Shown: piece by piece, positions 2,328 to 27,113 of the stretch
How the letters are laid out: each line of letters begins with the position of its first letter
Position numbering within the stretch: position 1 is the first letter of the stretch
Program-made: the position numbers and the translations under genes
Assembly (NCBI GenBank): GCA_964469905.1
Contig: CAYXZW010000004.1
Span: 44,173-76,172 of the forward strand
Direction of reading: 5' to 3'
Length of the DNA stretch: 32,000 nucleotides
Source: an uncultured Smithella sp.
GTDB lineage: Bacteria; Desulfobacterota; Syntrophia; Syntrophales; Smithellaceae
Notes under the pieces: model-generated
What the model saw: the letters and a program-made list of their open reading frames with translations, nothing else
Told to the model about the DNA's origin: nothing
The model's database searches: none

Positions 2328-2399
2328 TAGAAATCCTGTCAAACTTACTTACCAAGGGTCTAAATACCTAGGAGTAACTCCATTAGCTTTTCATGCAAC

Positions 2400-2723
2400 T
2401 TATCTTAGCATCCCTGTGTTTGTTGCTACGCTAACACAACGATCATCCCAAAGCTCAACCATATCAAAGTCTTTTACATTGGTAACTTCAAGTTTCGGCA
2501 AACCATGTGCAACAAGCCATTCATGGATATATCGTATTGCTTCATCCCCATGTGTCACTCTGGCTGTAAATATCTTGACGCATTTCCCTTCGGCAATCCA
2601 ACTTTTCACTCGGTCCAGCATTGGTAGTATAGGTTTACCGATGTGTTCAATACCTATCCAATCATTGTATTCAGCCAGCGTCCCATCAAGATCAACACCT
2701 ATCCACTGATTACCCTTGTTCAT
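2400..2723 (-). CDS. small HAD-superfamily phosphatase-like protein (capless)
   Basis: 107 aa. VDLDGTL matches HAD motif I (DxDxT), FTAR matches motif II, and LWDDR is an acidic motif IV-like element. Confidence 0.65.
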   Translation of the reverse strand: MNKGNQWIGVDLDGTLAEYNDWIGIEHIGKPILPMLDRVKSWIAEGKCVKIFTARVTHGDEAIRYIHEWLVAHGLPKLEVTNVKDFDMVELWDDRCVSVATNTGMLR

Positions 2724-2771
2724 TTGCTATATGTCTCCATACTTTTTAAGGGATCTTCTTTGATAGCACTG

Positions 2772-4238
2772 TCATGTAAACTTGTATAACTTCTCTACGA
2801 TATCAACCATACCCATGGTATCTAATCCACAATATTCTTCCAGTAACTTTCTGACCTTGGCCCTATCTTCATTATCTTCTGAAAATGTAACCCTTAAATA
2901 TTCGCTACTAGCTGTCCCACCATCACCAATCTCCATATCATCATATGACTTACCTGTAAGTACCGGCAATACTTTCTTGAGCGAACAACTGCCATCCTGC
3001 TTGGGATGATAATAAGCAAAATCCCTGAAAGGCTGAAGTAAATCAACAATTCTTTCTTCTATAGATGCCACCCATTTTTTATATTCGGGAAGGACATCGG
3101 TACATCTTTTAAGAATACCTATCTCAAAACCAGCATTATATGCAATTACAGAACCTTTGGCGCCCATAACTTCGTTTAGCTTTGCCATAAACTCCGGACG
3201 CGGATCATTAGTTCCATCTGCCAGAAATGAAAAATGTTCTGGTCTGGCCCCTTTTTCTTTAACAACATGCACGGAGAATTGGAAGGGGATTTGCTGATAA
3301 GGTTTGGAATCATCGAACATCGGAATACCTGAAGAACATGTCTCAAAATCCATGTAATAAGCAGGATATTGAATTGTATCTAAAAACCCTTTTACCATCT
3401 CCAAATCAACATAAGGTTTCTTCGATTTTTCACAATCAACCTGTATTTGATTCTTTTCGTTTAGCTTAATTTTGTCAGGTATTTTAACTAAATCAAGGAT
3501 GTCATCTTTAATCAAGGCTAGGGGAAGGTTCTTGTTTCTGTAAAGCAAGAATACATTTCTTTCCGGCAGGAATGACCAGCATATATCTATTATTGGGCAC
3601 TCGTATGGATCATTGCAATGTGTGCCAATGCCTATCTCGGGACATGTTTCAGCGGTAATAGCTTTAACCATTTCTACAACATCATTTTCAATTGCCTTAC
3701 TGTATGATGTTTTTATTTCTTTAGTAACATCAATCTTTTTAAATAATTTATAAGGATCTATATCTCCCTTGCGAACATAAGTATTATCAATGCACATTAA
3801 ATAACATTTATCTATCTTTATCCCGGCTCCGGAATAAACATAATATTGAAAACCAATATCAGCGTAATTAACATCCTTCAAGTCTGTCGAACTTTTAACT
3901 TCAATCAAGTTCCACTTGCCCCAGCCAGTCGGTTCTAAAATATCCGCCCTTGCATAGCAATTCTTATATGCCAAAGCCGCTTCAAATATTGGGACTCTTT
4001 TTAGTATAAGTTCCCTGGTTGATTTCAGGCCTTCTTCAAATGATTTGCTATGATCAACTTCTATACCTTCTGGAAATAATTTCTTTGAATAGTCGCCTAC
4101 GAGATGTCCCTGTGAAAATATGGCTTGAGTGGATTCATCCGGTTCAGGAATGGATTCCGATTCATTATAAATATACCAAAGCAGCTTTTTACACTGTAAC
4201 CCGTTAAGATATTTTGTTTTGGATAGTCTTATGCTCAT
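2772..4238 (-). CDS. DUF2779 domain protein (RecB/Cas4-like N-terminal nuclease fold plus C-terminal DEDD-like exonuclease fold)
   Basis: 488 aa. The N-terminus LSKTKYLNGLQCKKLLWY is the characteristic DUF2779 opening. A Cys cluster follows (CPEIGIGTHCNDPYECPIIDIC). YYMDFET and IPFQFSVH are present in the C-terminal half. Confidence 0.8.
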   Translation of the reverse strand: MSIRLSKTKYLNGLQCKKLLWYIYNESESIPEPDESTQAIFSQGHLVGDYSKKLFPEGIEVDHSKSFEEGLKSTRELILKRVPIFEAALAYKNCYARADILEPTGWGKWNLIEVKSSTDLKDVNYADIGFQYYVYSGAGIKIDKCYLMCIDNTYVRKGDIDPYKLFKKIDVTKEIKTSYSKAIENDVVEMVKAITAETCPEIGIGTHCNDPYECPIIDICWSFLPERNVFLLYRNKNLPLALIKDDILDLVKIPDKIKLNEKNQIQVDCEKSKKPYVDLEMVKGFLDTIQYPAYYMDFETCSSGIPMFDDSKPYQQIPFQFSVHVVKEKGARPEHFSFLADGTNDPRPEFMAKLNEVMGAKGSVIAYNAGFEIGILKRCTDVLPEYKKWVASIEERIVDLLQPFRDFAYYHPKQDGSCSLKKVLPVLTGKSYDDMEIGDGGTASSEYLRVTFSEDNEDRAKVRKLLEEYCGLDTMGMVDIVEKLYKFT

Positions 4239-4320
4239 AGGGTTATTTTGTCATTTTCTGCTTTAATCATAAGAGAATGAACATCATTTAAGTGAATTCT
4301 GTATCTTTTCAAATATACTT

Positions 4321-4971
4321 TCACAACAATACTTTGAAGTAAGGATATGATACAATAAGAAGTCCAAATATAATCGTATATGCAATTAAAGTTAATGCTT
4401 TTGATTCGACTACTAATTTTAGGGCAGATCCCAGTGATTTTTTAGGTGACCAGAAAATTAGAAATTTAAAATAAAAAAGCGAGCTGCCTTCATCAAGCAC
4501 GAGATGACTTAGATAACCTGCGCCTAGGGCAATGGCTATATAAAACCTCAACCTCATACCTAAATCGACTACCTGTAAAGCAAGGAATGATCCAAGCGTT
4601 ATAATAACCGCAGCTGGTATTGAATGCCAAATTCCCCTATGAGTGGTCATCTTTTTTATAATAGGACTAATCACGAACTTAACTGCCAGCACAGCAATTA
4701 TAACTCGCAATATAATTTCACCGTTATCGGATAGTATAGCTTTGAAATAGCTGTATGTTAATGCACCTACGGCCAATGAAAGCAATGATGAGGCAACGTG
4801 AAAAGGCACGGAAGTGTCCGAGTCCAAATCTGGTAAAATCGAGCCGATTGCTATGGCCACGGTGATTAAAAATGCTTTGGGCTGAGGGAGAAGCCCGTTA
4901 GATAAGATGAATATCAAAGCTGCACCACCTAAAACTACGCCGGCAGAAATGTGCGTATTGAAGCTGGCCAT
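4321..4971 (-). CDS. membrane-bound metal-dependent hydrolase, YdjM/DUF457-like
   Basis: 216 aa polytopic membrane protein. It has an N-terminal FNTHISAG, then LPDLDSD and WHS/SHLVLD histidines, as in the DUF457 family. Confidence 0.65.
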   Translation of the reverse strand: MASFNTHISAGVVLGGAALIFILSNGLLPQPKAFLITVAIAIGSILPDLDSDTSVPFHVASSLLSLAVGALTYSYFKAILSDNGEIILRVIIAVLAVKFVISPIIKKMTTHRGIWHSIPAAVIITLGSFLALQVVDLGMRLRFYIAIALGAGYLSHLVLDEGSSLFYFKFLIFWSPKKSLGSALKLVVESKALTLIAYTIIFGLLIVSYPYFKVLL

Positions 4972-5066
4972 TAAATTTTTCCCTTTATCTATTATACTGA
5001 GGTAAAATAATTATTCCGGTTTAAGCTAACTTTATTATTTATATGCCCCTAGGACGATCTTCTCTT

Positions 5067-5520
5067 TCAAATTCTACTGCTAAAGTAATGGACAATCTTC
5101 ACCATGGCTAATGTATTTTGACCACAGTAATTCAGCATATGCTTGCGCAATGTTTCCTTACGTTTTGTTGCTGTATCTGGATGTATCGCTTCAAAAAACG
5201 CTGCCTGTGCTTCCATTCCATCGTGTACCTCTTCAAGTTATTCATAATTAAATTCAGGCGAAACTGTTTGCAGTACTGCCTTAATAGACCATGAACCATT
5301 CATATCTTGATGGTAATAGCAGCTACGTAGAAGTGGAAGCAGGTCACATATTCTACCCTGAATTGCTGTCAAAGCACCCCCTATATTGGAAAGAGCTCAA
5401 TTAAAACACCAATAACCATTCTTTCAAAATGACCATAGGTGATAATTGACCCTTCTTTTTCAAGGTCAAGGATCATTTGTTCTGCATGGTTCCGCACAGC
5501 AAGCCCCTTTAACAGTTTTT
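5067..5520 (-). pseudogene. decayed 3' portion of a second DUF2779 gene
   Basis: Minus-strand translation across at least two frames gives AVRNHAEQMILDLEKEGSIITYGHFERMVIGVLIELFPI*, then ALSNIGGALTAIQGRICDLLPLLRSCYYHQDMNGSWSIKAVLQTVSPEFNYE*LEEVHDGMEAQAAFFEAIHPDTATKRKETLRKHMLNYCGQNTLAMVKIVHYFSSRI*. This is colinear with the C-terminus of the intact copy at 2772..4238 (EFMAKLNEVMGAKGSVIAYNAGFEIGILKRC...YYHPKQDGSCSLKKVLPVL...KLLEEYCGLDTMGMVDIVEKLY). There is an in-frame TAA at 5238-5240 and a frameshift near 5385-5395. The remnant may extend up to about 5600, into the tail of ORF 5521..5973. Confidence 0.75.
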
Positions 5521-5973
5521 TCAAGAAAACCTATAGAAAACAAATGCCAGCAATTCCATTTCCCTAATTTCAAAGAGAATCTTAAACGGGAGATGCATAA
5601 TCATCTGTTTTTCGGTTTCAGACACTGACAGAAGAGTTAAATCGACCAATGTCTTCAATTGTTTTATTTCTTCGGCAAGCTTCTTGGTCCCTTTGAAAAC
5701 ACTCTGTCGATAATAATCAGCCTTCTCCCAGATCTGTTTATTGCCCGCATTGCCGATGTTGATCGTGTGCTCCAGAAGAGCAATATTGCCAATCTTCCAT
5801 ATCCAGTCGTCATAGTTCTCATTTGTCGACTTCAGCCAGACATCCTTCAATTCCTGATAATTCACGGCGTTCTGTGAAAATACGTGTTCACGCTGTATCT
5901 GGATGCCGTCATCCTCATCTATGTCATAGTCGAAAATCCTACTCAATTCTTCATCTGAGTAGTCATAAACCAT
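5521..5973 (-). CDS. DUF1524 (His-Me finger/HNH-like) C-terminal half of a GmrSD-family type IV restriction enzyme; likely part of an interrupted gene
   Basis: REHVFSQ ... IGNIALLEHTINIGNAGNK matches the DUF1524 EH..(P/S)Q ... GN..LL....N....N pattern. The ORF is in the same reading frame as 6022..7662 and is separated from it by a single TGA. Confidence 0.7.
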   Translation of the reverse strand: MVYDYSDEELSRIFDYDIDEDDGIQIQREHVFSQNAVNYQELKDVWLKSTNENYDDWIWKIGNIALLEHTINIGNAGNKQIWEKADYYRQSVFKGTKKLAEEIKQLKTLVDLTLLSVSETEKQMIMHLPFKILFEIREMELLAFVFYRFS

Positions 5974-6021
5974 GCGTTCATATTCATAGAGGACATACTT
6001 GAAGTTTCCATACCCCAGATC

Positions 6022-7662
6022 TCAGACAAGATATTCCTTTTTATATCCAAAGGAAAAATTGCGGACATGGTCGACAATTTTATCCACATAGTTAGATTCC
6101 CAGACGAAGCTACCGACCGGACGCTTTCCGATAGTCCAGATTGCGAGCTCGTTTTCTTCAATAAGATTGAAGATCGTTACCGGCTTCGAGGCAAACTGAC
6201 TGAATTCGTCAATTTGTCCAATGCACATTCCATATCGGTCTTTCAAAAATCCGAATAGGTCCCTATATGGTCTAATCAGCTCAATGTCCCGTGAAACCCC
6301 AGATTCAGCTGTCAGTGCAGCAAGCTTGGCATTTGCTCCCTTGATCCGGTCAATCTCCTCAAACAGATTGATGGCGGCCATCTCCCCCGTCTTGGGAATA
6401 CTCTGTCCCGGTTCAAGCATGGACATGGTTTGTGGAGGTGTATTTTTATATATCTCAACCAGCAGCGCCTTGCTAAATACCGACAGCCCCAGGATGCTGA
6501 AAAGCTGTTTGAATGGATACCAGGTCTTGGCAATATAAGGGTCTTTGTGACTATAAGCCAATTCACAGGGGACTGCCGTGTCAGCAACATAGCGCAGGAA
6601 AGATATGATGCTACGGATCTTGTCCGCCAGATATGGGATAATGACTTTGATGTTGTCATTCTGCAGCACCAACGTTTCGCGGAACACCTTATTAATGGAC
6701 TCGTAAATCCTGTCTTCGCCGGATTCGTACCAAACCTCTACCTTGCGTTTATTGTCTCCTTCATCATTGAGCAGGTCGTTCAGGTACTTCCGGTAGAAGC
6801 CTTCCCGGAGCAGCATGAAGTTTAGAATCCGTATGACGTCGGCCTCGGCGCTCTCCGGCTTAGGATAGATTTTGAGCGAACAGAGAAGCTCTATGGTTTC
6901 AAAAAGTCCGCCGAACATGTTATCAATATCACGGTCCAGGTCAATATCCTTTTCAACCTTCTGTGCGTAGAACATCAGGGTGCTCTTGAGCTTTTCCGTA
7001 TTGGTCAATCGCTTGCCCCGATCGGTTTGAGAAACGAACAGGGTTCCCGCCAGTTCTAGGTTATCCTCGACCAATATCTGTACGACTTGAAGATTCTGCT
7101 GAACAAACCGCTTTAAGTCGTCCCGGCGCGGAAAATCCGCCAGCCGGCGGCGGAAATAGTCGTAAGTTACCCTGATGCGACGATTGCTTTTCGTCTTCGG
7201 CTCTATCGCTGTGCCACTAACAAGATGCAGGAAATACTCGTGGTCCACCTTGCCGGGGATCAGTTTGGGAATAGCGGCATTGAAGATATGCGACACGATG
7301 GCGGCATCCTGAAAGGCGAGGAGAAAGAGAAAAAAGGTTATGGTGCGCTGCTGGCCATCGATGACAAAATAGAAGTCGTTGCCTGTGTCCAACTGCGCCA
7401 GCAGCTCGTGGCGCAGGATGTCCTGATTTACATATTCATCCAGCTGGGCATAACTGACCTTGGCAAGATAGATGCTACCCAACAAGTAGGGCAGGTATTC
7501 CGCTTCTTCAATGGCAAATACCAAGTCGTTCCAGAAGTCCTCGATGTGCTTCTCCTCCCAGGAGAATGGACGCTGGTACTTGGGCATCAACAACTGCCTT
7601 TTGCCGCCGAACATTTCCGTATAGTAGTTACAGATGGAAACCTTGATCTTGTCAGTGGTCAA
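6022..7662 (-). CDS. DUF262 (ParB-like nuclease/NTPase) N-terminal part of a GmrSD-family type IV restriction enzyme
   Basis: MPKYQRPFSWEEKHIEDFWNDL and VIDGQQRTITFFLFL (DGQQR) are DUF262 hallmarks. The TTG start at 7660-7662 overlaps the TGA (7659-7661) of the upstream TIR gene. The ORF ends at TGA 6022-6024, and the same frame stays open beyond it into 5521..5973. Confidence 0.8.
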   Translation of the reverse strand: MTTDKIKVSICNYYTEMFGGKRQLLMPKYQRPFSWEEKHIEDFWNDLVFAIEEAEYLPYLLGSIYLAKVSYAQLDEYVNQDILRHELLAQLDTGNDFYFVIDGQQRTITFFLFLLAFQDAAIVSHIFNAAIPKLIPGKVDHEYFLHLVSGTAIEPKTKSNRRIRVTYDYFRRRLADFPRRDDLKRFVQQNLQVVQILVEDNLELAGTLFVSQTDRGKRLTNTEKLKSTLMFYAQKVEKDIDLDRDIDNMFGGLFETIELLCSLKIYPKPESAEADVIRILNFMLLREGFYRKYLNDLLNDEGDNKRKVEVWYESGEDRIYESINKVFRETLVLQNDNIKVIIPYLADKIRSIISFLRYVADTAVPCELAYSHKDPYIAKTWYPFKQLFSILGLSVFSKALLVEIYKNTPPQTMSMLEPGQSIPKTGEMAAINLFEEIDRIKGANAKLAALTAESGVSRDIELIRPYRDLFGFLKDRYGMCIGQIDEFSQFASKPVTIFNLIEENELAIWTIGKRPVGSFVWESNYVDKIVDHVRNFSFGYKKEYLV

Positions 7663-10625
7663 GCCGGCATAACCTCACTGCTTTCTTCTTTTGTTTTTTT
7701 CTCAGAATTATCTGCAAGTAATTCATCTATCAATGGAGTTACTTGCTCTTTCATGATTTTGAACTTTTCCTTAAAATACGACTGCATCTCATATTGGTTT
7801 TTTTCATCTATTACCTTCTTTTCCGTTCCAGCAGTATTCCTAAACTGTGCATCAGCATACTGCCACCACGGCCACCCCCTTTCTGATCTTCCAGATAAAA
7901 ATATTTTTTTTATTTTCTCACTGAAATCGGTGTTTTGAGCATTTATTGTGCTGTCGCATGATTGGATACCATAGAAGAGATTATCAAAATCATTAGTTCC
8001 AGCCTGAAGTGTAAGACAATATGTGCTTTTATCCTGGTCTGGTTTTTTCCAGGCTTCTTTATAGAAAGATATCCCCGCATACTTTTCCATGGTTTTTGCA
8101 TTGGTATACATCTTCCATCCATCTTTCTCAGGGAAAAGCGTTTTTAGTGTATTGGTCAGCCCATCTATCAAGTTTTGAAGTTCTCCAATGAAATGAACCT
8201 GGTAGTTGTGATCATTGCACAGTTTCTTAATCAGGGGCTCCATTTTTAAAATATTTTTGGCTAGCCCTTCCATTGTCTCATCAAAAAATATACACCTTTC
8301 ACCTGCAATAAGAGGCCAGGAACCATCGTTAATCCAATCAAAGTTACTTCCCCCTGTTTTTGTAAAGTTAGCCAAATTTGCACTCCAGATTCCGTAAAGA
8401 TTCCCCGTGTCATGACTTTTTCCGAATGCGAATTCGCAGGCGCCGCATAACATCCCCAGCTGATGCTCGAATTTCGGGTCAATTTGCTCGTTTTGCTTCA
8501 GGGAGACAACGAGGCCATCAAAGCATGGTTCCGTCGGAATAATCTGCAGCATGACGGGGGGGAGGTCATCGTCGTTTGCGCCACTTTTGCGCCATGTCGA
8601 ATGCCAGATTGAAATGGGAGCCATTTTTTCCAGTGAAATGGCTTTATTTTCAACTTTCCATACTCCTGTTTCACTCACAAGAAACTGCTCCAATACTTTG
8701 CATGCATGCGTCACAAGGTTTTTAACCGCTTCCAGATGGTTTCTGAGCATAATAAATTCAGGCAGGATCTTGTCAATTTCTTCGGTTACGAAAGATTCGT
8801 AACGAGCAAGCCATTCTGCTATACTTTTTCCTTCAAAATCATCAGATACTGTTATATTCTTAGGTATTGTGTATAGGCCACGATTTTTAATAAACGCCTT
8901 GATAATCTCCGTTTCAAAATCAGGCGGCTCTAAGTTCTTGAACATAACTGCCATATTTTTTTTCGTGCATGTAAATGCAGCAACTGCATCAAATTCTTCA
9001 ACCTTAAAAGTTAAATAAGTTTCTAACGTAATCCACTCACAATCAAGATTCCTGGACATAAACGAAAATGTCATCCCTGCTTCACTTGCCTTTTGATTGC
9101 ATTTTTCAGTAATCATTCTGAGATAATTATAGATATAAAGACCGTTATTCCAGGTTCTTCTTTCTTCCTCCATTACAAGGGGATTTGCTAATTGCATTCT
9201 TGGGATGTCATTACAGGCATCACCAATTATCACTTCCAAATCCTTCAATTTTTTAAATTTCCCCACACAATATTCAATGAAACCGTCAAGGTCATCTTGC
9301 CAGTCAAATGAAATATCGGCAATTCCACTATTGCGCCATTTTCCATCAAGTAGTTGCCACCACGGCCAATATGGTTCCGGCTTTTCCGTCTGTTCCATTA
9401 TTTTTATTGCCCTATCTGTAATGCGTGACTCCCAATCACCTAATGTCATCCAACTTTCATATTTGAGGATGCCGATATACAAGCCGTTCAAAAAATGTCC
9501 TCCGCTTTCCAGGGTGAAAGACAACAAGCCGCGCCCCCGGTAGTTATCTGACTGCGGCTGCCAATCCTTTTTGAAGACGTTAAGTTTGCCATACTGCCTA
9601 AAACCGCTTAATCGTTCCCCCTCCGGAGCGCCTACCATCCAGTCTTCTGTTTCGGGAAAGATTTCTTTCAGCTTTTCTTCCAGCCGACTGATGGTTTTCT
9701 CCACCTTTCCTGCATAGTCAATCCAGTCGAGCAGTCCGGGGAAAATTTTATCAGAAAAAGCTTCAATATTATCTTTGAATAAATCAAAACATTTTTCCAA
9801 GGAATGGCCAGCAAGTTTGTTTGTTAATGGTTCTTCCTTCAATAAAGCGACAAAATTCCAGCGCCTTGCCCCGGGAATCCTCTTGACATCTTTAAATGTT
9901 TCGCTTTTTTCTTTTTGAAAAAATGTTACAAAGGGATATTTGAGGGGATCTCCATCTGATGCTGAATCTGCATATATATCTATTGTTTTTTTCTGTGTGC
10001 TAAATTTGAATATCAGATCAACACCTGTGGCGCCTATTCTAATGGGAAAAAAGAGGACAACATCTTGAGTCGCTCCCTTCTGAATAGAAAACATGGCATT
10101 GATGGTATCCAGACGCAGCCTATATTTGCCGTTTAAATTGTTTGCCAATAGTCGAGCAGCTCCTGATATGCCGCCGTCCATATCTCCTTTATCAACGGAT
10201 TCCTTGTTCAGCATGACAAGAATGGCATCGACAGCCGCTTGAAAACGCTCGCTGCCTTCCCCTTCTAAAGCATCGACCCATTGCTTATCAGAAAGATGGT
10301 ATTTGAACGCCTCTTTTAACGGTGAATCTTCAATGCGTATCGGAAGCAACATCTTTTTATCGCTATTGGCAATATCCACTTCTTTAGCGCACTCCGCCGA
10401 TCCCATAGATGCCTCAGAAACAAGCAGGGCAAGAATGTCCGTTTCGCTAATTCCTGCCATGATGGCGTTAGCCCACTGTTGGCCTGCTCCGATATCTCGC
10501 GGGGCAATCCAACAGGAAATACCTGCGCCCTCAAGCAGATTGCATAAATACTGGGCATCATTCTTATTCTTTTCTGTTCTTGTTGTATAACTAATAAATA
10601 CTTCCTTTTTTTCTGTTCTAGCCAT
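7659..10625 (-). CDS. TIR-domain protein with a large internally repeated C-terminal region (TIR-A-B-A'-B'-B'')
   Basis: Residues ~8-125: VFISYTTRTEKN...CWIAPRDIGAGQQW...LLVSEASMGSAECAKEVDIA...LLPIRIED is a bacterial TIR_2-type pattern. The C-terminus holds three related ~150-aa modules (approx nt 9216-9683, 8211-8708, 7716-8168). Shared landmarks are LFPE(T/K)(E/D)(D/G)W, L(Y/F)(I/Y)GI and (Y/G)WPWWQ. GGAGG lies 4 nt before the ATG at 10625. Confidence 0.85.
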   Translation of the reverse strand: MARTEKKEVFISYTTRTEKNKNDAQYLCNLLEGAGISCWIAPRDIGAGQQWANAIMAGISETDILALLVSEASMGSAECAKEVDIANSDKKMLLPIRIEDSPLKEAFKYHLSDKQWVDALEGEGSERFQAAVDAILVMLNKESVDKGDMDGGISGAARLLANNLNGKYRLRLDTINAMFSIQKGATQDVVLFFPIRIGATGVDLIFKFSTQKKTIDIYADSASDGDPLKYPFVTFFQKEKSETFKDVKRIPGARRWNFVALLKEEPLTNKLAGHSLEKCFDLFKDNIEAFSDKIFPGLLDWIDYAGKVEKTISRLEEKLKEIFPETEDWMVGAPEGERLSGFRQYGKLNVFKKDWQPQSDNYRGRGLLSFTLESGGHFLNGLYIGILKYESWMTLGDWESRITDRAIKIMEQTEKPEPYWPWWQLLDGKWRNSGIADISFDWQDDLDGFIEYCVGKFKKLKDLEVIIGDACNDIPRMQLANPLVMEEERRTWNNGLYIYNYLRMITEKCNQKASEAGMTFSFMSRNLDCEWITLETYLTFKVEEFDAVAAFTCTKKNMAVMFKNLEPPDFETEIIKAFIKNRGLYTIPKNITVSDDFEGKSIAEWLARYESFVTEEIDKILPEFIMLRNHLEAVKNLVTHACKVLEQFLVSETGVWKVENKAISLEKMAPISIWHSTWRKSGANDDDLPPVMLQIIPTEPCFDGLVVSLKQNEQIDPKFEHQLGMLCGACEFAFGKSHDTGNLYGIWSANLANFTKTGGSNFDWINDGSWPLIAGERCIFFDETMEGLAKNILKMEPLIKKLCNDHNYQVHFIGELQNLIDGLTNTLKTLFPEKDGWKMYTNAKTMEKYAGISFYKEAWKKPDQDKSTYCLTLQAGTNDFDNLFYGIQSCDSTINAQNTDFSEKIKKIFLSGRSERGWPWWQYADAQFRNTAGTEKKVIDEKNQYEMQSYFKEKFKIMKEQVTPLIDELLADNSEKKTKEESSEVMPA

Positions 10626-10643: not shown

Positions 10644-12680
10644 TTAGTTCTGCTTTTCACTATCGTTCATGAATTGTCTTTGCTTCTGCCATCCGGGACT
10701 GGCCAGAAGGTTCCTGATATTTTCAAGCATGTCCTTGTCCTTTTGCTTCTCGCTTTCAGAGAGTTGTGCATAAGGGATGATCATTGGATGGATTTTTTTC
10801 TCGTTGTTTCTTACCAGACCATAACGCCACCCATCCATAAGTCTTTCAGCCATCCACCGCCTGTGTTCCATCTCTGACAGCATTTCAAAAAAAACATGGT
10901 TGTGAGCAATATTAGCTAGAGGAGTCAAATCTTGACCATCACAACCGATAGCGCGAAGCTTGACCGAAAGATGATCAGCCGGCCAGCGATTCGCGTCCTT
11001 CATGACTTCGTTGAGTTCCTCCCATACTACCAACGAAATATTATCTCTCTTTTTCTGGGGATAATGCATCGGGTAGGCTGCATCAAGCAAGGATGCATTC
11101 AGCCGGAATAACTGTGTCTGTTCCGTAATGGTGAGCTCATGGAAAAGTTTGCTCCTTATTGAAGACGTCCGAGTTGCCAGCTTTTCAAACCTCGGTGCCA
11201 AAACCGTGCCGCGTTTCTTAAAGATTCGATCATAGAGACTTGGCATCTTCAGGATTCGATTGAGAGAGGCTATGGGATCTTGTTCCTTGAAGTCCGTCAA
11301 TTCGGGGATGTCCTTTAACACGGCATGAATAAAATCAAGAGGTTTGCTTTCTTTGAAGTCGTTTTCATTGAAAGGAATCTGAGTATTGACGTATGCTGAG
11401 TGGATTGTTCGCGCCAACTCATCTGTTACCTCGTCCATTAGGACCTGATAACCACAAGCAGCATCATAAATATTGAAACCCTGTATATTCAGGTCTAATG
11501 TATATTGCGATTCGTTTCCCTCCATGAGTTCAGACAAAGAAGATCTCATGCAGACTACAATCGGTATGTCGTCTGAGGGAAGAAGAGATCGAATCCGCAT
11601 AGCAAGAGAAACACCAGTCGAATCATCATCTAACGCAATATATACAGCAGCCGGTTTTGAACAGGTAATCTCTTCTATCGACAGAAGGCATTCGGGATCA
11701 TGATCGATAAAACGGATATTAACACCAGGGACAATAAAAGATGGAGGTTTCGCCCCATCACCATAAACCGCAAGAAACTTCTCAGAGTTTGTTTTGATAT
11801 TTCGATCAACGACGTTAATTTCCAGTCGCTGCCACTCGGCGTAATGCCCGATTCGTGCAGCCTGTTTAATGATGTGCTCTCCCATCCTGCTGAATCCAAT
11901 TATGACAAAAGAGATGGTTTTATCTGACAGTCCTTGTTTTCTGGCATACAGGTCAGGAGGGTATTTTTCCAAGATAACACGGGCAGATGTTTCGTAGATG
12001 TTGAAGATACTGGCATCGAATTCGTTATAGGTTCTTGCAAAGAGATCATGGTGGGCGAAAATTGATCGCAAACTTGAACTGGTAATATGGGTATAACAGC
12101 GCAAATTAACCGTCGAATCATTTCTGTAAGCGGTTTCTGCCAGCAGCTTTCCCTCACTTGCTATTTTAATATTGGCATTGTCACTCCCTGTGACGGCAAA
12201 AAGATATTTTGCTTTTGCAGTATTTGCTTCATCCAGCATGACCTGGTCCGAAGCGTCACCTATCAAAACTAATACACCACGTTCCCTGCAGCCCGGAATG
12301 TCGGGATGATCTTTCTTGGACTCTATAACAACCACACGGTATCCTTTTACTAGAAAACTGCTCATCAGGCGCATTCCCTTGTCTCCGAGACCGCTGATGA
12401 CCACATGGCCAGAAGTCTGCTGAAGGCGGATCAGTTCGTATTTTTCCCGAATTTGCTTCCAGAATGCCTGAATAGAACCTAGTGCTGTTCCCCCCGCCCC
12501 TAAAAACTTGGCAATAGTAAACAAGAGCTTTTGCTGCTCTGGTTTACCGACAATAATTAATATAACGCCAGTAATAACCAGAATTACAGCCGTCACCAAC
12601 AGACCGATGACCAACCACCAGGAGTATTTACGATTCCAGCGCCCAAAGGCAGTAAATGAAGAGACACTATGTTTTTTCAT
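10644..12680 (-). CDS. membrane-anchored protein with two TrkA_N/RCK-type Rossmann domains and a C-terminal RyR domain
   Basis: N-terminal TM helix WWLVIGLLVTAVILVITGVILIIVG. VVISGLGDKGMRLMSSFLVKGYRVVVIE carries GxGxxG plus an acidic beta2 end. A second copy is FVIIGFSRMGEHIIKQAARIG...INVVDRN. The C-terminus MEHRRWMAERLMDGWRYGLVRNNEKKIHPMIIPYAQLSESEKQKDKDMLENI matches the RyR-domain consensus (E..W......GW.YG......K.HP.L.PY..L.E.EK..D). The ATG at 12680 is preceded by AGGGG and lies 4 nt after the upstream TAA; the track start at 12704 is a TTG. Confidence 0.8.
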   Translation of the reverse strand: MKKHSVSSFTAFGRWNRKYSWWLVIGLLVTAVILVITGVILIIVGKPEQQKLLFTIAKFLGAGGTALGSIQAFWKQIREKYELIRLQQTSGHVVISGLGDKGMRLMSSFLVKGYRVVVIESKKDHPDIPGCRERGVLVLIGDASDQVMLDEANTAKAKYLFAVTGSDNANIKIASEGKLLAETAYRNDSTVNLRCYTHITSSSLRSIFAHHDLFARTYNEFDASIFNIYETSARVILEKYPPDLYARKQGLSDKTISFVIIGFSRMGEHIIKQAARIGHYAEWQRLEINVVDRNIKTNSEKFLAVYGDGAKPPSFIVPGVNIRFIDHDPECLLSIEEITCSKPAAVYIALDDDSTGVSLAMRIRSLLPSDDIPIVVCMRSSLSELMEGNESQYTLDLNIQGFNIYDAACGYQVLMDEVTDELARTIHSAYVNTQIPFNENDFKESKPLDFIHAVLKDIPELTDFKEQDPIASLNRILKMPSLYDRIFKKRGTVLAPRFEKLATRTSSIRSKLFHELTITEQTQLFRLNASLLDAAYPMHYPQKKRDNISLVVWEELNEVMKDANRWPADHLSVKLRAIGCDGQDLTPLANIAHNHVFFEMLSEMEHRRWMAERLMDGWRYGLVRNNEKKIHPMIIPYAQLSESEKQKDKDMLENIRNLLASPGWQKQRQFMNDSEKQN

Positions 12681-12684
12681 AAAG

Positions 12685-14493
12685 TTACCCCTGTGGAACC
12701 TCAATAGGACGTTCGCGGTGCATCAATAGCCAGTCCCCATTTTCGGCGATGGCTTCCTTACCGAGCTTGAGTAATACATCACGGCTCTGTAATTCATTGT
12801 CAGGATTTGACTCCAGGAGCTTAAGCGCCTTATTAAAGAGCGCCCCCATCCGTATGTATTGTTTCGCTTGTGCAGAAAAGAGCATTTTATCATTGTAATA
12901 ATTTATGGCACCGGCAATGACGAATGAGGCAGGTGTGGCAACTTGCATCCAATTGTCTAACAAATCGCCACCAAGCTTAAACTTGTGAATAATAAGCATT
13001 GCGGGTGTTAAAACAAACATAGCAATGCTGAAGAATACTTTAGAAATTAAGTTTAATCTTTCCATTTTTTTCTTCTGTTTAATGGCAGCATTTCTATAGT
13101 AGTGTGATTGTCCTTGCACCCAGTATGTTTTAACTGCTTGAAGAGCTTCTATATGGATGGGCTTGTTACAATCGTTGACAAAACCAGTTAAAAGATTCCA
13201 ATTCCTGATGGCTTGACGAATCCAATCAAGCTCACTCTGTTGCTTGCCCAGATAGTCAGAAGCGACAGATTCGCGCAATCCAGCCAGTCTCCAAAAAAAT
13301 TGAACGCGTAATCCTTCTGCAAGCGCCCGGTAATCGAGGAATTTTTCTTGATTTTTGCGTTGCTTTGACCAGTAGTAAACACCATAGGCGCACGCCATTG
13401 GTGCAAGATATCCTAAAATGACAATCAGTGCCGAAGAAATGCTCAGGTACATTTCAAAAAAGAAGACTATAAGCGGTACAAAACATGCGATGGCATATAG
13501 GGCGGCATAGGTATCCTTTTGAAAATGGATTGCCATAGCATCCGCAATTGCAAATCGCTCAAGCAATTCCTTCTGTGGTCCGGAAAGATCCTCCTTTGTG
13601 AACTTACTATCTGTATGCTGCCCGGGAGATGACGTTGGAATCGACATAAGCCATTCCACCGACTGCTTTGATTGTGTCGCAAGTTCATTGGCAAGCGTGA
13701 TCGCATCGCAGTTAAATGCATCAATACATGTAAAGACTCGCTGCTGCTCTTCTTCTCGAGATCCCGTGTTGTCTTCATTGAGTGGATATAGAATGTTTAC
13801 TGCAAATTGATTAAATGACGGGAATGTATCGTGCGACAGGAATTGCTGAAAAAAGCCTGTATCAGGCCTTATGGATCCATTTTCCGATTTGCGACGAGTT
13901 ACAATATGATAGACAGGACCGGTCTGGATGGGATTAAATATGATATCCTCGTTGTCAGCCCTTGTCGTATCGCCCGATAACTGAAGTTCTACGATGTCTG
14001 CTGTACCACCGAGTTTCTCATTGAGAATACCATCCCACAAGGCAATCAGAATCTGGCAATGCTCAACCATGAACTGGCCTGCTGCGAAATACTGTCGATC
14101 ACGGGCAGGTCCGTAGTCCTTGATTGAATTAATGGTGTTTCCTTGAACGATGGGAATTACAAATGATGAAAATGCTTTGGAAAGAAGCTTTGTAAAATTT
14201 TCTTTTGATGAACTGGATTCAAAGTCTCTTTCGTATTCATCTTGGGGGAGCGGCAACGGGACAATAAGTTGCATACTATTCTCGATAGCTACTTCCGCAG
14301 CAATACGGTCGGCACCTTCTGCAAGAGAGGATATTAATGAGAGGGGCGTAAATGGATACTTAGCTTTAAGATCAGCAAAAATAGATTGTACCCGCCTCTT
14401 TAACTCCTGATAATCTTCTTCGTAAATGTCACGATGCCCTGTGACACCTATCATAATGGGTACAGACGCCATTGATCTGCCTTTAATATTCAT
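12685..14493 (-). CDS. SLOG-domain (YpsA/DprA/LOG-like) protein fused to a 4-TM region ending in a SLATT-like 2TM module
   Basis: The N-terminus IGVTGHRD ... SSLAEGADRIAAEVA ... LIVPLPLPQDEYERDF ... ILIALWDG...LGGTADIVE follows the SLOG/YpsA strand-loop pattern. TM pair 1 is YAIACFVPLIVFFFEMYLSISSALIVILGYLAPMACAYGVYYW. The distal part is YYRNAAIKQKKKMERLNLISKVFFSIAMFVLTPAMLII...VATPASFVIAGAINYY...AQAKQYIRMGALFNKA, i.e. helix-TM-TM-helix as in SLATT/DUF4231. The alternative start MASV at 14472 is possible. Confidence 0.7.
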   Translation of the reverse strand: MNIKGRSMASVPIMIGVTGHRDIYEEDYQELKRRVQSIFADLKAKYPFTPLSLISSLAEGADRIAAEVAIENSMQLIVPLPLPQDEYERDFESSSSKENFTKLLSKAFSSFVIPIVQGNTINSIKDYGPARDRQYFAAGQFMVEHCQILIALWDGILNEKLGGTADIVELQLSGDTTRADNEDIIFNPIQTGPVYHIVTRRKSENGSIRPDTGFFQQFLSHDTFPSFNQFAVNILYPLNEDNTGSREEEQQRVFTCIDAFNCDAITLANELATQSKQSVEWLMSIPTSSPGQHTDSKFTKEDLSGPQKELLERFAIADAMAIHFQKDTYAALYAIACFVPLIVFFFEMYLSISSALIVILGYLAPMACAYGVYYWSKQRKNQEKFLDYRALAEGLRVQFFWRLAGLRESVASDYLGKQQSELDWIRQAIRNWNLLTGFVNDCNKPIHIEALQAVKTYWVQGQSHYYRNAAIKQKKKMERLNLISKVFFSIAMFVLTPAMLIIHKFKLGGDLLDNWMQVATPASFVIAGAINYYNDKMLFSAQAKQYIRMGALFNKALKLLESNPDNELQSRDVLLKLGKEAIAENGDWLLMHRERPIEVPQG

Positions 14494-14539: not shown

Positions 14540-15688
14540 TTATAGGAGTTTTTTGCTCGCGACACTCCAAATCAAATTTATAAATGTCACAAGTTGTTCG
14601 GCAACATATTTAGCGAACCCAAGATCAGCCAATTCCGCAAATGACACTCTTTTTATGGTTTCAAAGCCAAGGTTTCCTATTTCTTCAGAGTTCAATTCAT
14701 AATAATGATCTTTAACATGAAAACCACCTTTTGAATCAAGCGCCTCTGGGATCAGGTTAAATTCATCACAAGTCTGTCTGAACAGTGGATCTCTTTTTTC
14801 GCTTTCTGAATAGATTCCCCATACAACATTTATCCTATCCAGGCGTCTCTTGGTCAGAGAGACTGAAATGAAATATTTTTCATTGATCTGCCAATAGACC
14901 CAATTCTCTTCTGCAATATCATCATCCTGCGCAATTTCATTTGGGATGAATGGCAATCGAGCAGGATCCATTGTTTCTCTAACTAATTTTAAGAATTTAA
15001 TGCCCACATTGGGCCATGCATTATCTCCAACGACAACAGGGTCACTTTGAACTATAGTCCCTTTAAAACTAATGTTTGCTTCATCTATCTCACTCTTTAC
15101 CCTCGCCTCTAAGTCCTTTGCTCGGTCAATAGAAATGCAAAGATCCCTTGTTAGGTTATTTATTGTATCTCGTTCAATATCCGTTATTTGACCATCTTCA
15201 TACGCCATACGTAGAACTTTTAATAGTGCTTCCTCATTAGATCTGTTTTCAGATTCAGTTACTTTTGTCTCCTTTTTTTCTCGTTGGCTAAATAAATCAA
15301 CTTGTTCTTTAATCCTCTCAGCGACAGAATTAAGATGATCGACTTGACTGTCTAAAATATCAATAACGTTTGGCGTAGCTAAATGATATTTAAAAGCTCG
15401 TTCAGGTGCAATGTCTTCAATCCGAACCGGAATTAATAGGCATTTATTTTGTGCAGAGAGCGTTAACTCTTTTAGGACATTTTCGCTATTCTGTGAATTT
15501 GAAGAGAATACAAGAATTACAATGGGCACATTATCGATAGCGTCGACAATTTTTTCCGCCCAATTCCCAAGGCCGATGTTATCTTTATCTCGCCAGCAGC
15601 GGACTCCATTTTTTTCAAGCAAATCCCTTAAAGTTACAACAAATTTCTCATCCTGCCTCGAGTAGCTTAAAAATACATCATAGCTCAT
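14540..15688 (-). CDS. TIR-domain protein (ThsB-like architecture: TIR plus coiled coil plus a distinct C-terminal domain)
   Basis: YDVFLSYSRQDEKFVVTLRDLLEKNGVRCWRDKDNIGLGNW...VILVFSSNSQNSENVLKELTLSA...LIPVRIEDIAPERAFKYHL is a clear TIR pattern. It is paralogous to the TIR of 7659..10625, which carries LLPIRIEDSPLKEAFKYHL. AGGGGA precedes the ATG at 15688. Confidence 0.85.
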   Translation of the reverse strand: MSYDVFLSYSRQDEKFVVTLRDLLEKNGVRCWRDKDNIGLGNWAEKIVDAIDNVPIVILVFSSNSQNSENVLKELTLSAQNKCLLIPVRIEDIAPERAFKYHLATPNVIDILDSQVDHLNSVAERIKEQVDLFSQREKKETKVTESENRSNEEALLKVLRMAYEDGQITDIERDTINNLTRDLCISIDRAKDLEARVKSEIDEANISFKGTIVQSDPVVVGDNAWPNVGIKFLKLVRETMDPARLPFIPNEIAQDDDIAEENWVYWQINEKYFISVSLTKRRLDRINVVWGIYSESEKRDPLFRQTCDEFNLIPEALDSKGGFHVKDHYYELNSEEIGNLGFETIKRVSFAELADLGFAKYVAEQLVTFINLIWSVASKKLL

Positions 15689-15734: not shown

Positions 15735-16268
15735 TTATACTCTAATTCCGCGACTTGCAAGGGTTCTTTCCGGATTAAATATTCCCTCTTTATTCCTGAC
15801 AAGAGCAAAAACAATTGGGGATAGGACAAGGAGAAATGCAAAGCCTGTGCGCCGAGAAGAAGCCCTGTTTGAACCTGTTTTACCAGAAGGTGTCACAAAG
15901 TTAAGTAGATTAATGATAAATAATACGGAAAGAGAAATCTTTGTGACTAACGCAAATAAAATACCTAGAGGATTTTGATTATCTTGAATGGTTCTGATAA
16001 CAATCCATAAAAAAAGAACAGATTCAACAATGGCAATAAATATGAAACCTATTTTATGGTTATCCTTTGATGCAAATGAAAAAACATACATGAGAATTAT
16101 AGGAACCAGACCCAGTAAAAAGACTAGCCCCAAATCATTATAATCCCGAAAGACGGTGATCTTCTGTTTGAAGCCCATAACAACTCCGATTACAACAAAG
16201 ACAACCCACGCAATCAATGTGTAGATGTTAAATATCCAGTCTGTCCAGACATACACATTAGCTTCCAT
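15735..16268 (-). CDS. polytopic membrane protein of unknown function, first gene of the TIR operon
   Basis: 177 aa with about 5 hydrophobic helices. The RBS AAGGAAAGGA precedes the ATG at 16268. Only 46 nt separate its stop from the TIR gene start. A 309-nt non-coding leader lies upstream. Confidence 0.6.
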   Translation of the reverse strand: MEANVYVWTDWIFNIYTLIAWVVFVVIGVVMGFKQKITVFRDYNDLGLVFLLGLVPIILMYVFSFASKDNHKIGFIFIAIVESVLFLWIVIRTIQDNQNPLGILFALVTKISLSVLFIINLLNFVTPSGKTGSNRASSRRTGFAFLLVLSPIVFALVRNKEGIFNPERTLASRGIRV

Positions 16269-17486: not shown

Positions 17487-18260
17487 TTACCACAGTCCTT
17501 GTGCCTTATTCGTCTCGATGATATCCTGATCTTGTTTGTTAATATTGGACAAGAAATCTAGTCCTGTCTTTGATTCTACTTCCCGGATCGTCACAATATA
17601 GTTAGGCATGTTCTTCGTTTCTAATTTCTCATTGGGCATGATGAAGGCAATGGCTTCTGCTTTATTTGGATCATATACTATCTTATAGAGATGTGTCGGT
17701 ACTGCCACTTTGTTATTTCCAATTGTTTCTTTAACTCCGTCTTCATAAATTGGTCCGGTAAAAACATATAACTCATTTCGATCAATTGCCCATCCCCGGA
17801 TATACTCTTCCAGGTTCTTCCATATCCCTTGATTCATACCTTTGCCGACTTGGGGCACCATATTGGAAAGATAAAAACATTCCACCATCGCCTGTTGATC
17901 CCAGCGCATATCAGCAGATGGTGCCATGTGTCCTCTGTCATAACCACTTTTTTTATAATCTGAGAGTTCTGCTCGTTTTCCTTCTTCCAAATCGGGATCA
18001 GGTTGAAACTTATTATATCGTGGAATATTGCCTTTTGCTTTTTCCGCTGTCAGATGTTCAATAACCCATATGGGCGTTTTATATTCAGAGCTATGGGCTA
18101 AAAGAAAACCTTTTCTACAGAGTAGTTCTCCATTCTTGCCTGGTATGCCAAGCTTGGCATATTCCTCACAATCGTCAATTGGGCCGGCAAGAGCTATGTT
18201 TAAACTTAAAATGAAGGCAATGATTGCAAATAAAGCTGTCTTTCTATTCAATACAGTCAT
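17487..18260 (-). CDS. secreted DNA/RNA non-specific endonuclease (Serratia NucA/EndoG family)
   Basis: Signal-peptide-like N-terminus (ALFAIIAFILSLNIALAG). SGYDRGHMAPSAD (DRGH catalytic His) and LSNMVPQ (Mg-binding Asn) are the family's beta-beta-alpha-Me motifs. AAGGA lies 8 nt before the ATG. Confidence 0.9.
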   Translation of the reverse strand: MTVLNRKTALFAIIAFILSLNIALAGPIDDCEEYAKLGIPGKNGELLCRKGFLLAHSSEYKTPIWVIEHLTAEKAKGNIPRYNKFQPDPDLEEGKRAELSDYKKSGYDRGHMAPSADMRWDQQAMVECFYLSNMVPQVGKGMNQGIWKNLEEYIRGWAIDRNELYVFTGPIYEDGVKETIGNNKVAVPTHLYKIVYDPNKAEAIAFIMPNEKLETKNMPNYIVTIREVESKTGLDFLSNINKQDQDIIETNKAQGLW

Positions 18261-18525
18261 TCTTATATCCTTCCAACAATTCCCGGATAATCGGTTTTAT
18301 ATAGATCTCACTGACATCAAATTGCCGTAGTGCTTTAATCATAACATGAATCTTATCTTTGACTGTAGCCTTGGAATTAAGAATCAGAATGTATTTCCCT
18401 TCAAAACGGCAGATACCTCCGGTGCTCGATGATTCCTCTAAATTCATATTTTCATCACGAACTAATATTTCAAGTTTTTCTGCCAGTTCTTCAAGTTGAT
18501 TTAAAAGGACTTCGTCATTCATCAT
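18244..18525 (-). CDS. small cytoplasmic hypothetical protein overlapping the nuclease gene start
   Basis: 93-aa ORF with no signal peptide. Its 3' end overlaps the nuclease ATG by 17 nt. The protein has an acidic helical N-terminus. I recognise no family. Confidence 0.5.
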   Translation of the reverse strand: MMNDEVLLNQLEELAEKLEILVRDENMNLEESSSTGGICRFEGKYILILNSKATVKDKIHVMIKALRQFDVSEIYIKPIIRELLEGYKNDCIE

Positions 18526-26765: not shown

Positions 26766-27113
26766 TCATTTTCCAGCCTTTTGATTATTTCGGGGAAGTG
26801 TTCCATTTCTGAGACGGTTTTCATAAGACCCCTCCTCCTTGCATCGATTGATAATGGTTGTTTCTTCAATTGGTTCTCCCATCGTCCAGTAAAGTAATCC
26901 ATCTTCTGCAAAGTATGTGAGAATGTGTTGGTAAAAGCGTCCTTCAAAACCGTGTTGATGGATGTGGCGAACTAATTCGTCGAAAAGCATGCTGTCGACC
27001 CGGTCTCGAACGATATATTCGTGGGGCCATTCCAGCATCGTCTTGGCAAACGTCCATTGTGCGGAGGCAATGAACTCCCGTAAAGCATTGGGCAAGGCAA
27101 CTGAAACACTCAT
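26766..27113 (-). CDS. small hypothetical protein translationally coupled to mcrC
   Basis: 115 aa. Its ATG (27111-27113) overlaps the mcrC stop (27110-27112) in an ATGA arrangement. It contains WTFAKTMLEWPHEYIVRD, a motif I recall from conserved hypothetical proteins but cannot assign to a family. Confidence 0.6.
   Translation of the reverse strand: MSVSVALPNALREFIASAQWTFAKTMLEWPHEYIVRDRVDSMLFDELVRHIHQHGFEGRFYQHILTYFAEDGLLYWTMGEPIEETTIINRCKEEGSYENRLRNGTLPRNNQKAGK

Follow-up and report, generated by a model that had tools for sequence, protein, structure and literature searches.

A SLOG-SLATT fusion gene of an uncultured Smithella, its TIR neighbours and an RCK-RyR partner: a predicted membrane effector of Thoeris-like signalling

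Related systems and the SLOG-SLATT locus

Here we describe a gene of an uncultured Smithella sp. whose product fuses a SLOG domain to two units resembling SLATT, the "SMODS and SLOG-associating 2TM effector domain" (2TM, two transmembrane helices). This SLOG-SLATT_3-SLATT_1 fusion gene (12685..14493, minus strand) lies between two TIR genes in a 32,000-nucleotide (nt) stretch of contig CAYXZW010000004.1, hereafter the window. We favour, with moderate confidence, the reading that its product acts at the inner membrane as an effector in a Thoeris-like system of anti-phage signalling based on TIR proteins. An earlier note on this DNA, made from the sequence without database searches, had read the gene as a minimal sensor-pore design.

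SLOG-SLATT fusions of nucleotide-dependent conflict systems were reportedly described by Burroughs, Zhang, Schaffer, Iyer and Aravind in NAR in 2015, and the exact architecture of one SLOG and two SLATT domains is said to be among them. The Smithella protein shares the domain order of these predicted conflict systems, its full-length homologs match the corresponding Pfam models, and the predicted logic, a nucleotide-signal receptor combined with a 2TM pore-forming effector, is the same; it differs in that its own scores fall below every curated threshold. To our knowledge, the RCK-RyR partner encoded next to it is not described in the 2015 work. Later papers of the Burroughs/Aravind group predict SLATT to be a membrane effector regulated by ADP-ribose (ADPR) derivatives.

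In type I Thoeris, the SLOG domain of ThsA, a SIR2-SLOG protein, is the receptor for 3'cADPR, an isomer of cyclic ADP-ribose (cADPR), and type III systems combine several TIR proteins with a SLOG effector. The statement of the earlier note that SLOG is the Thoeris receptor for glycocyclic ADP-ribose (gcADPR) agrees with the literature for type I. Our locus has a SLOG receptor and, like type III systems, multiple TIR genes, and a ThsA structure (8btp) was among the structural matches of the fusion protein. However, the output of ThsA is a SIR2 NADase, whereas that of the Smithella protein is a membrane SLATT pair, and none of the ThsA/Thc models of NCBIfam and PADLOC matched it. Type VII Thoeris consists of the TIR protein ThsB and the SLATT protein ThsH; it signals through canonical cADPR, its defence activity has been validated, and ThsH is predicted to oligomerise in the membrane on ligand binding (Yirmiya et al. 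2025, bioRxiv 10.64898/2025.12.03.692087). There as here, a TIR gene lies beside a SLATT membrane effector. Going by its description, ThsH is nevertheless set apart, as it comprises SLATT only and its ligand is proposed to bind between SLATT protomers, while the Smithella protein carries a fused SLOG domain and two SLATT units. By analogy, it joins the receptor of one validated system (type I) to the output module of another (type VII). Among the named Thoeris types (I-XI), no PADLOC or NCBIfam effector model matched it.

A "4TM SLOG" protein encoded beside TIR genes is a candidate effector among 29 putative Thoeris types (Yirmiya et al. 2025, bioRxiv 10.64898/2025.12.03.692087, Tables S1/S2) and embodies the same idea of a SLOG domain with four transmembrane (TM) helices next to TIR. 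We considered and rejected an identity of the two proteins. The "4TM SLOG" protein of locus L089 (L089:3829-5028) has about 400 amino acids (aa), a LOG-like SLOG domain and four Gly-rich TM helices; tblastn of our protein against this locus found no similarity at E<=1e-3, and the TIR domains of the "4TM SLOG" systems matched none of the TIRs in the 81 loci surveyed below.

Among animal proteins, the N-terminal MHR1/2 region of TRPM channels is SLOG-like and gates a cation channel, and in TRPM2 it binds ADPR. TRPM2 and TRPM4 thus resemble the Smithella protein in combining a SLOG-type domain with a membrane permeation module in one polypeptide, a likeness by analogy only, as they form six-TM tetrameric channels whose TM domains are unrelated to 2TM SLATT hairpins. 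Both appeared in the structural comparison at low Foldseek probability (0.13-0.38), with matches that were not mapped to a domain.

Architecture and conservation of the SLOG-SLATT protein

The motifs quoted in the earlier note were all located in the 602-aa open reading frame (ORF), with TGHR at residue 18, EGADRIAAEVA at 59, PLPLP at 79, LIALWDG at 149 and GGTADIV at 162, as was the hydrophobic hairpin string, which comprises 43 aa from residue 333. A second ATG at 14472 (M8), which would give a protein of 595 aa, is preceded by AAGG, and the identical protein in the database (P0001) has 595 aa and begins at M8. For these two reasons the true start of the gene may be the second ATG.

The AlphaFold2 (AF2) model of the protein (pLDDT 90.5, pTM 0.90) showed strands and helices at pLDDT >90 for residues 13-198. 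Foldseek comparison with the PDB returned, at probability 1.00, exclusively SLOG-superfamily structures, namely DprA (3uqz/5mll/4ljl) or ShosA (8zva), followed at probability 0.89-0.98 by LOG-family structures (1wek/5zi9), PpnN and 3'cADPR-bound ThsA (8btp). The N-terminal domain thus has the Rossmannoid three-layer alpha/beta fold common to DprA/Smf and LOG, and homologs match the Pfam YAcAr/YspA SLOG family; the SLOG assignment of the earlier note holds, and the model gave no hint of another fold. We place the cytoplasmic, YspA/YpsA-like SLOG domain at residues ~10-200 (13894..14466, minus strand), on the grounds of the Foldseek matches, Pfam YAcAr matches in homologs and invariant residues. 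Sequence searches of the PDB with the family profile or the SLOG domain alone yielded no meaningful match, and only fold comparison was informative.

Conservation was assessed in an alignment of 53 full-length homologs with 36-84% identity to the Smithella protein, to which the homolog counts given below refer. G19, H20, A58, G60, A61, D62, W153 and T164 are invariant, as are Arg131 and Tyr135, and the nucleotide-binding loops GxTGHR (G16, T18, G19, H20), EGAD (G60-D62) and WDG...GGT (W153, G162, G163, T164) are invariant or at least 90% conserved. Since these core residues do not vary among the homologs, the motifs recognised by the earlier note are not a chance resemblance at the level of sequence. 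As a separate observation, residues 10-169 match the phage family phrog_289 ("GTP-binding domain") with an E value of 1.5e-4, and phages therefore encode related SLOG domains.

The remainder of the protein contains two SLATT-like units. The first (residues ~305-435; 13189..13581, minus strand) was delimited by AF2 helices, NCBIfam SLATT_3 and SLATT_3/DUF4231 matches of homologs. It consists of a long helix, TM1 (331-351), a 4-residue loop, TM2 (356-376) and amphipathic juxtamembrane helices (YRALAEGLRVQFFW...SELDWIR), modelled by AF2 as helices 305-351, 356-378 and 381-403. The second unit (residues ~448-602; 12688..13152, minus strand), delimited by AF2 helices and SLATT_1 matches of homologs, comprises a helix, TM3 (483-505), a short loop, TM4 (~511-531) and two C-terminal helices, corresponding to AF2 helices 448-505, 509-537, 539-562 and 567-593, and carries the conserved motif LGKEAxxENGDWxLxHRERP at its C-terminal end. 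TM4 is moderately hydrophobic (Kyte-Doolittle 0.88) and is called a TM helix because of the AF2 hairpin and the SLATT_1 matches of homologs.

The four TM helices thus form two tight hairpins with outer loops of 4-5 residues and Lys/Arg-rich inner flanks. Such flanks indicate that the loops face outwards and that the termini and all soluble parts are in the cytoplasm. Taken together, AF2, hydropathy and charged flanks reveal two copies of the arrangement typical of SLATT, a tight TM hairpin flanked by cytoplasmic helices. Homologs matched SLATT_3 (PF18184; 27.8 bits) and DUF4231 (PF14015; 28.3 bits) over hairpin 1, both above cut-off, and SLATT_1 (PF18181) from hairpin 2 to the C-terminus (~440-600) at 26.0-26.1 bits against a cut-off of 26.3. 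SLATT models were matched by 10-14 of the 53 homologs, and the domain order along homologs is YAcAr SLOG, SLATT_3/DUF4231, SLATT_1. PADLOC found weak matches to the CBASS "2TM effector" in 4/53 homologs and to ShosA in a few. These results bear out the tight hairpin and the second SLATT/DUF4231-like helix-TM-TM-helix unit of the earlier note, and the four predicted TM helices agree with the membrane topology that it had expected. An origin of the two units by internal duplication was considered and dropped, the hhalign comparison of hairpin 1 with hairpin 2 not being significant (probability 3.5%, E 0.012). Judged by their sequences, the two units are divergent and correspond to different SLATT families.

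Conservation along the protein is highest in the juxtamembrane segment 377-435 (YRALAEGLRVQFFW...SELDWIR), where it exceeds that of the SLOG domain, and lowest in the TM helices. A conservation peak in the juxtamembrane segment fits a putative coupling element between sensor and membrane. It also bears on whether the SLOG domain might be an enzyme acting on a nucleotide, by glycosidic bond cleavage in an ADPR derivative or by LOG-like base release, with the SLATT units mainly as anchor or secondary effector. This appears improbable to us, even though the superfamily glycosidases LOG and PpnN were among the structural matches, His20, Asp62, Arg131 and Tyr135 are all invariant, and published SLOG clades extend from enzymes at one end to sensors without catalytic activity at the other. 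Sequence matches lead instead to the YspA/YpsA-like clade, which is linked in the literature to cADPR sensing. The LOG motif is PGGxGTxxE; its glutamate is not conserved here, the family having GGTxxVV, and the high conservation of the juxtamembrane coupling helices is in line with signal transmission.

When 1.84 billion 50%-identity representatives were searched exhaustively, family members numbered 7,682 at E<=1e-3, 4,653 at E<=1e-10 and 1,444 at E<=1e-30, and at 90% identity more than 4,192 clusters were found among 8,000 candidates scored. Relatives are encoded in at least 524 GTDB species genomes from Ignavibacteriota/Kapabacteria, Acidobacteriota, Proteobacteria, Desulfobacterota, Firmicutes, Chloroflexota and Planctomycetota as well as one archaeon; a second size class in the family has ~840 aa. 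The "minimal sensor-pore design" is not the novelty that the earlier note had taken it for, as the fusion represents a very large family and the SLATT name itself encodes the association with SLOG. By sequence, the Smithella protein is a further member of an already predicted effector family. Nor is the design minimal in its own clade, where the gene is conserved together with that of an RCK-RyR membrane protein, so that SLOG-SLATT probably does not act alone.

TIR neighbours and the proposed mechanism

As the earlier note had said, the SLOG-SLATT gene is located between TIR genes (14540..15688 and 7659..10625, both minus strand), with the TrkA_N-RyR gene of the partner (10644..12680, minus strand) intervening, and the family is also positionally associated with TIR. 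Its TAA stop codon (12687-12685) is followed by "cttt" and the ATG of the TrkA_N-RyR gene at 12680. The reported spacing of 4 nt was therefore correct (12685 versus 12680), but the "stoichiometric co-expression" derived from it was an overreach, since such a gap speaks for co-transcription and sets no fixed ratio. The two genes are probably co-transcribed and possibly translationally coupled too. Promoter and terminator scans gave results at or below shuffled expectation, and the operon structure is thus deduced from gene spacing.

The upstream TIR protein, TIR-382 (382 aa; Pfam TIR_2, E 4e-20), consists of an N-terminal TIR domain and a C-terminal region of no known fold. The downstream protein, TIR-988 (988 aa; TIR_2, E 1.5e-19), carries an N-terminal TIR domain followed by a region of ~850 aa. 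Within the latter protein, a segment of ~130 residues is repeated (~302-434 and ~810-932; 25% identity, E 3e-11), with WPWWQ...RN at the end of each copy, and the repeat has no family match except a weak one to PADLOC PDC-S26. Both TIRs align a Glu to the Glu column of the BcThsB motif RYEIM, which we take to be the catalytic E85. By this alignment, TIR domains with an intact catalytic Glu are encoded alongside the effector, as in Thoeris, and their matches to ThsB/ThcB4 models are weak (E 1.6e-5 to 0.013). Because the Glu column is kept and the non-TIR regions are large, TIR-382 and TIR-988 are plausible sensor-synthases, and TIR-988 is a candidate for both infection sensor and signal synthase.

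For a survey of family gene neighbourhoods, ORFs were called in 81 loci from about 80 species and searched with iterated profiles. A TIR ORF was adjacent to the SLOG-SLATT gene in 19/81 loci and within three genes in 28/81, with TIR counts of 19, 9, 3, 4 and 1 by gene distance. This proximity of a signal enzyme, together with the SLOG fusion itself, is the setting expected of SLATT domains, and the presence of TIR nearby in about one third of the loci supports a Thoeris-like reading. A neighbour cluster contained TIR in 29/53 members, plus TPR, WD40 and NACHT proteins, and TIR-TPR, DUF4062(TIR-like)-NACHT-WD40 and CHAT-TPR neighbours were found at single loci. An 84% identical relative (L102) has the same five genes. 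In a Desulfuromonadales relative with 45% identity (L001/L008), SLOG-SLATT is followed by TrkA_N-RyR and TIR-983, flanked by MazE/PIN and GmrSD; TIR-983 shares 44% identity with TIR-988 over the full length. TIR-382 is kept in L102 and absent from L001/L008.

Several observations weigh against a role in TIR signalling or against the domain assignments on which it is built. About 65% of the 81 loci have no TIR within three genes; at L104 (45% identity), the pair of SLOG-SLATT followed by TrkA_N-RyR is kept and no TIR lies within 8 kb, and L103 (47%) has neither TIR nor the RCK-RyR partner. TIR is thus not obligatory. The Smithella protein itself scores 13.7 bits with Pfam YAcAr (PF10686; cut-off 28.2, E 0.055) and 14.4 bits with NCBIfam SLATT_3 over residues 313-395 (cut-off 45, E 0.029), reaching no curated cut-off, and no PADLOC model matches it; among its homologs, P0009 attains the YAcAr cut-off with 28.2 bits and 11/53 have E<0.01. 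Catalysis, instead of pure sensing, could be the role of His20 and Asp62, which are invariant in the SLOG pocket, and the family, with its 1,444 to 7,682 clusters at 50% identity, is known from computational prediction alone. Two representatives of the "4TM SLOG" proteins, which form a different family, provided no defence when tested in E. coli (Yirmiya et al. 2025, bioRxiv 10.64898/2025.12.03.692087).

Many loci without a recognisable conflict gene, and the conserved synteny in which the Kapabacteria and Ignavibacteria gene follows FBPase, would also suit SLOG-SLATT and RCK-RyR proteins without any immune role, forming a housekeeping membrane regulator responsive to nucleotides or NAD(H) in ion homeostasis or stress, with the TIRs as coincidental island cargo. 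A response to NAD+/ADP is part of the normal physiology of RCK domains and GsuK. We nevertheless consider this explanation quite improbable, given that TIR ORFs are concentrated at a distance of one to two genes, that STAND, TPR, WD40 and CHAT conflict-system neighbours recur, along with GmrSD, toxin-antitoxin and McrB-like genes, and that the distribution across phyla is patchy.

The Thoeris-like reading can be put as a sequence of steps. One or both TIR proteins would sense infection through their non-TIR regions and turn NAD+ into an ADP-ribose-derived signal, which would be bound by the cytoplasmic YspA/YpsA-type SLOG domain. The resulting change would be relayed via the juxtamembrane helices (377-435, 534-602) to both SLATT 2TM hairpins, and a rearrangement or oligomerisation of these hairpins would break down the membrane barrier, causing growth stop or death ahead of phage release. 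The RCK-RyR partner would most likely act on the same signal, either at the membrane, as second receptor and regulator, or enzymatically, as a hydrolase for threshold or reset. From the observed domain architecture, topology, family size, neighbourhoods, key residues of TIR and RyR domains and defence-island setting, we infer ligand gating, ligand identity and pore formation by SLOG-SLATT, and with them all steps of the mechanism beyond the architecture. Domains of a kind that binds ADPR derivatives are present in SLOG, as in ThsA, and in the RyR domain of the partner with its RyDEP residues described below. A defence-island context is given by GmrSD_N/GmrSD_C, DUF2779 and McrB-like genes in the window and by GmrSD, MazE/PIN and CcdAB/PIN in relatives.

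The RCK-RyR partner and the surrounding defence island

The partner is a protein of 678 aa with a TM hairpin, tandem RCK (TrkA_N) domains, a helical region and a C-terminal RyR domain (Pfam TrkA_N 2e-17, RyR 2e-17). In its AF2 model (pLDDT 87), an N-terminal hairpin of TM helices leads to two Rossmann lobes, followed by a helical region and then by the RyR domain, and the best Foldseek matches were GsuK (4gx1/4gx5; E 1.6e-8), the TrkA gating ring, KtrA, MthK, the BK ring and RyR3 Repeat12. The tandem RCK architecture is shared with GsuK, a multi-ligand-gated K+ channel. In contrast to the latter, the partner has lost pore helix and selectivity filter through a deletion of ~28 aa in its N-terminus, where relatives have TTIGYGD, and we therefore rule out that the gene in the window encodes a working K+ channel. 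An N-terminal alignment revealed a gradient in which TTIGYGD is intact in L049 (6015-7823) and L055 (6202-7926), degenerate in several other relatives and deleted in the clade of the window; L035 (3495-5228) and L048 (4915-7212) belong to the same series of TrkA_N-RyR relatives. In the window clade, what was a K+ channel thus appears to have become an RCK-RyR protein tethered to the membrane.

The RyR domain (Repeat12-type; 10683..10895, minus strand) was compared with the repeats of RyR1-3 by phmmer and proved to be a typical RyR repeat, with an E value of 1e-30 against RyR2. Phage RyDEP proteins with RyR domains bind, and in one case cleave, 2'cADPR/3'cADPR via H75, W78, H100 and D117 (PMC13232231, 2026 preprint). 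Compared by residue spacing, H606, W609, H631 and D648 of the partner have the same spacing as these residues, and the strict H/W/H/D pattern occurs in 32 of the 85 matches that make up the small TrkA_N-RyR family. The RyDEP preprint covers virally encoded members only, which act as counter-defence (PMC13232231). RyDEP is of phage origin, small and soluble; the RyR domain of the partner, by contrast, is encoded by the host within a TIR operon and anchored through a membrane RCK protein. In the literature available, we found no description of TIR operons in which a host gene joins a RyR domain to a channel relative without a pore. The position of host RyR-domain genes directly beside TIR genes, also where SLOG-SLATT is absent, suggests that their RyR domains may be receptors or processors of TIR signals, beyond phage counter-defence.

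RyR-domain genes were found within three genes of SLOG-SLATT in 9/81 loci. Their architectures comprise Ion_trans_2 + TrkA_N + RyR (L049, L055), TrkA_N + RyR, AAA + RyR and solo RyR proteins of 99-132 aa; the partner itself adjoins SLOG-SLATT in L001/L008, L102 and L104. Conversely, three reciprocal look-ups identified loci (L105-L108) in which TrkA_N-RyR directly follows TIR without SLOG-SLATT, and L109 contains TIR, AAA-RyR, TrkA_N-RyR and DUF4062-STAND-WD40 genes. Because TrkA_N-RyR also follows TIR without SLOG-SLATT, TIR, SLOG-SLATT and RyR-domain proteins can be seen as a mix-and-match network. The same loci, L109 with its TIR-like STAND gene included, would also suit two adjacent two-gene systems in the window, one formed by TIR-382 and SLOG-SLATT and the other by RCK-RyR, as effector or receptor, and TIR-988. 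TIR with SLOG-SLATT and without RyR is common, and TIR-382 is missing from the Desulfuromonadales cassette, both as expected of separate pairs. We regard this alternative as unlikely, however, since the adjacency of SLOG-SLATT and RCK-RyR is kept at 45% identity (L001/L008, L104), even without TIR, the two genes are only 4 nt apart in the window, and RyR-domain genes of several architectures occur beside SLOG-SLATT in the nine loci.

Extending the Thoeris-like reading to the partner, we tentatively propose that the operon joins a TIR synthase to two membrane proteins with SLOG and RyR modules, and that the host RyR domain could be a genuine receptor for cADPR isomers or a threshold-setting hydrolase. 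The pore-retaining proteins of L049 and L055 would then gate a K+ channel directly, and the RCK-RyR protein of the window would assemble with or regulate SLOG-SLATT as a two-receptor complex. As part of this proposal, the SLOG and RyR modules would by analogy be bacterial counterparts of those in two animal ADPR-linked channels (TRPM2 MHR1/2 and RyR Repeat12). If true, this would amount to a prokaryotic pathway from cADPR via a RyR domain to ion flux, and should RyR domains sense the TIR signal, they would provide a tractable bacterial model for the old question of cADPR-type action on RyR repeats. The series from intact to degenerate to deleted pore would show a channel becoming the regulator of another membrane effector. 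While SLOG-SLATT alone adds one member to a big predicted family, its surroundings, with host RyR domains in TIR operons, hold the greater interest.

Further genes were noted at the loci of relatives. In L104, a gene for a CARF-type Cas_NE0113 protein (L104:6675-7832) is divergent to and adjoins the pair of SLOG-SLATT followed by TrkA_N-RyR, which hints that this pair might be wired to other nucleotide signals. The surroundings of SLOG-SLATT in L103 (L103:9263-12577) contain RtcB, RF-1-like, cREC_REC and Tpt1/KptA (PTS_2-RNA) genes as well as CcdAB and PIN and are, by gene content, an RNA-repair and toxin island. The Desulfuromonadales locus has DUF2779 ORFs as the immediate upstream neighbours of its SLOG-SLATT gene (L001:7553-7987). 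A DUF2779 protein is also encoded in the window (2772-4238, minus strand), and DUF2779 may be a recurrent neighbour of SLOG-SLATT.

The gene string of the window is headed by a multi-TM protein of 177 aa (15735..16268, minus strand; 46-nt gap), whose membership in the system is uncertain; it has no family match in Pfam, PADLOC or NCBIfam and is conserved only in the close relative L102. Directly downstream of TIR-988 lies a split GmrSD restriction gene, also on the minus strand, consisting of GmrSD_N (546 aa, 6022-7662), with a 4-nt overlap between its mechanical ORF start and the TIR-988 stop, and GmrSD_C (150 aa, 5521-5973). At the other end of the window, a McrB-like AAA_5/nSTAND3 protein (729 aa) and an overlapping ORF of 396 aa are encoded at 27110-30480 (minus strand). 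Going by its GmrSD, DUF2779 and McrB-like AAA_5 genes, the window is a defence island. The McrB-like patch has a GC content of 0.47-0.51, its low-coordinate flank one of 0.28-0.35, and the other side tapers to 0.37-0.41; the McrB-like genes are probably a separately acquired McrBC-like defence module. A DNA/RNA non-specific endonuclease of 257 aa (17487-18525, minus strand; E 2e-60) has an N-terminal signal-like segment, and the start of its gene is overlapped by the end of a preceding ORF of 93 aa. The two could form a nuclease/inhibitor pair.

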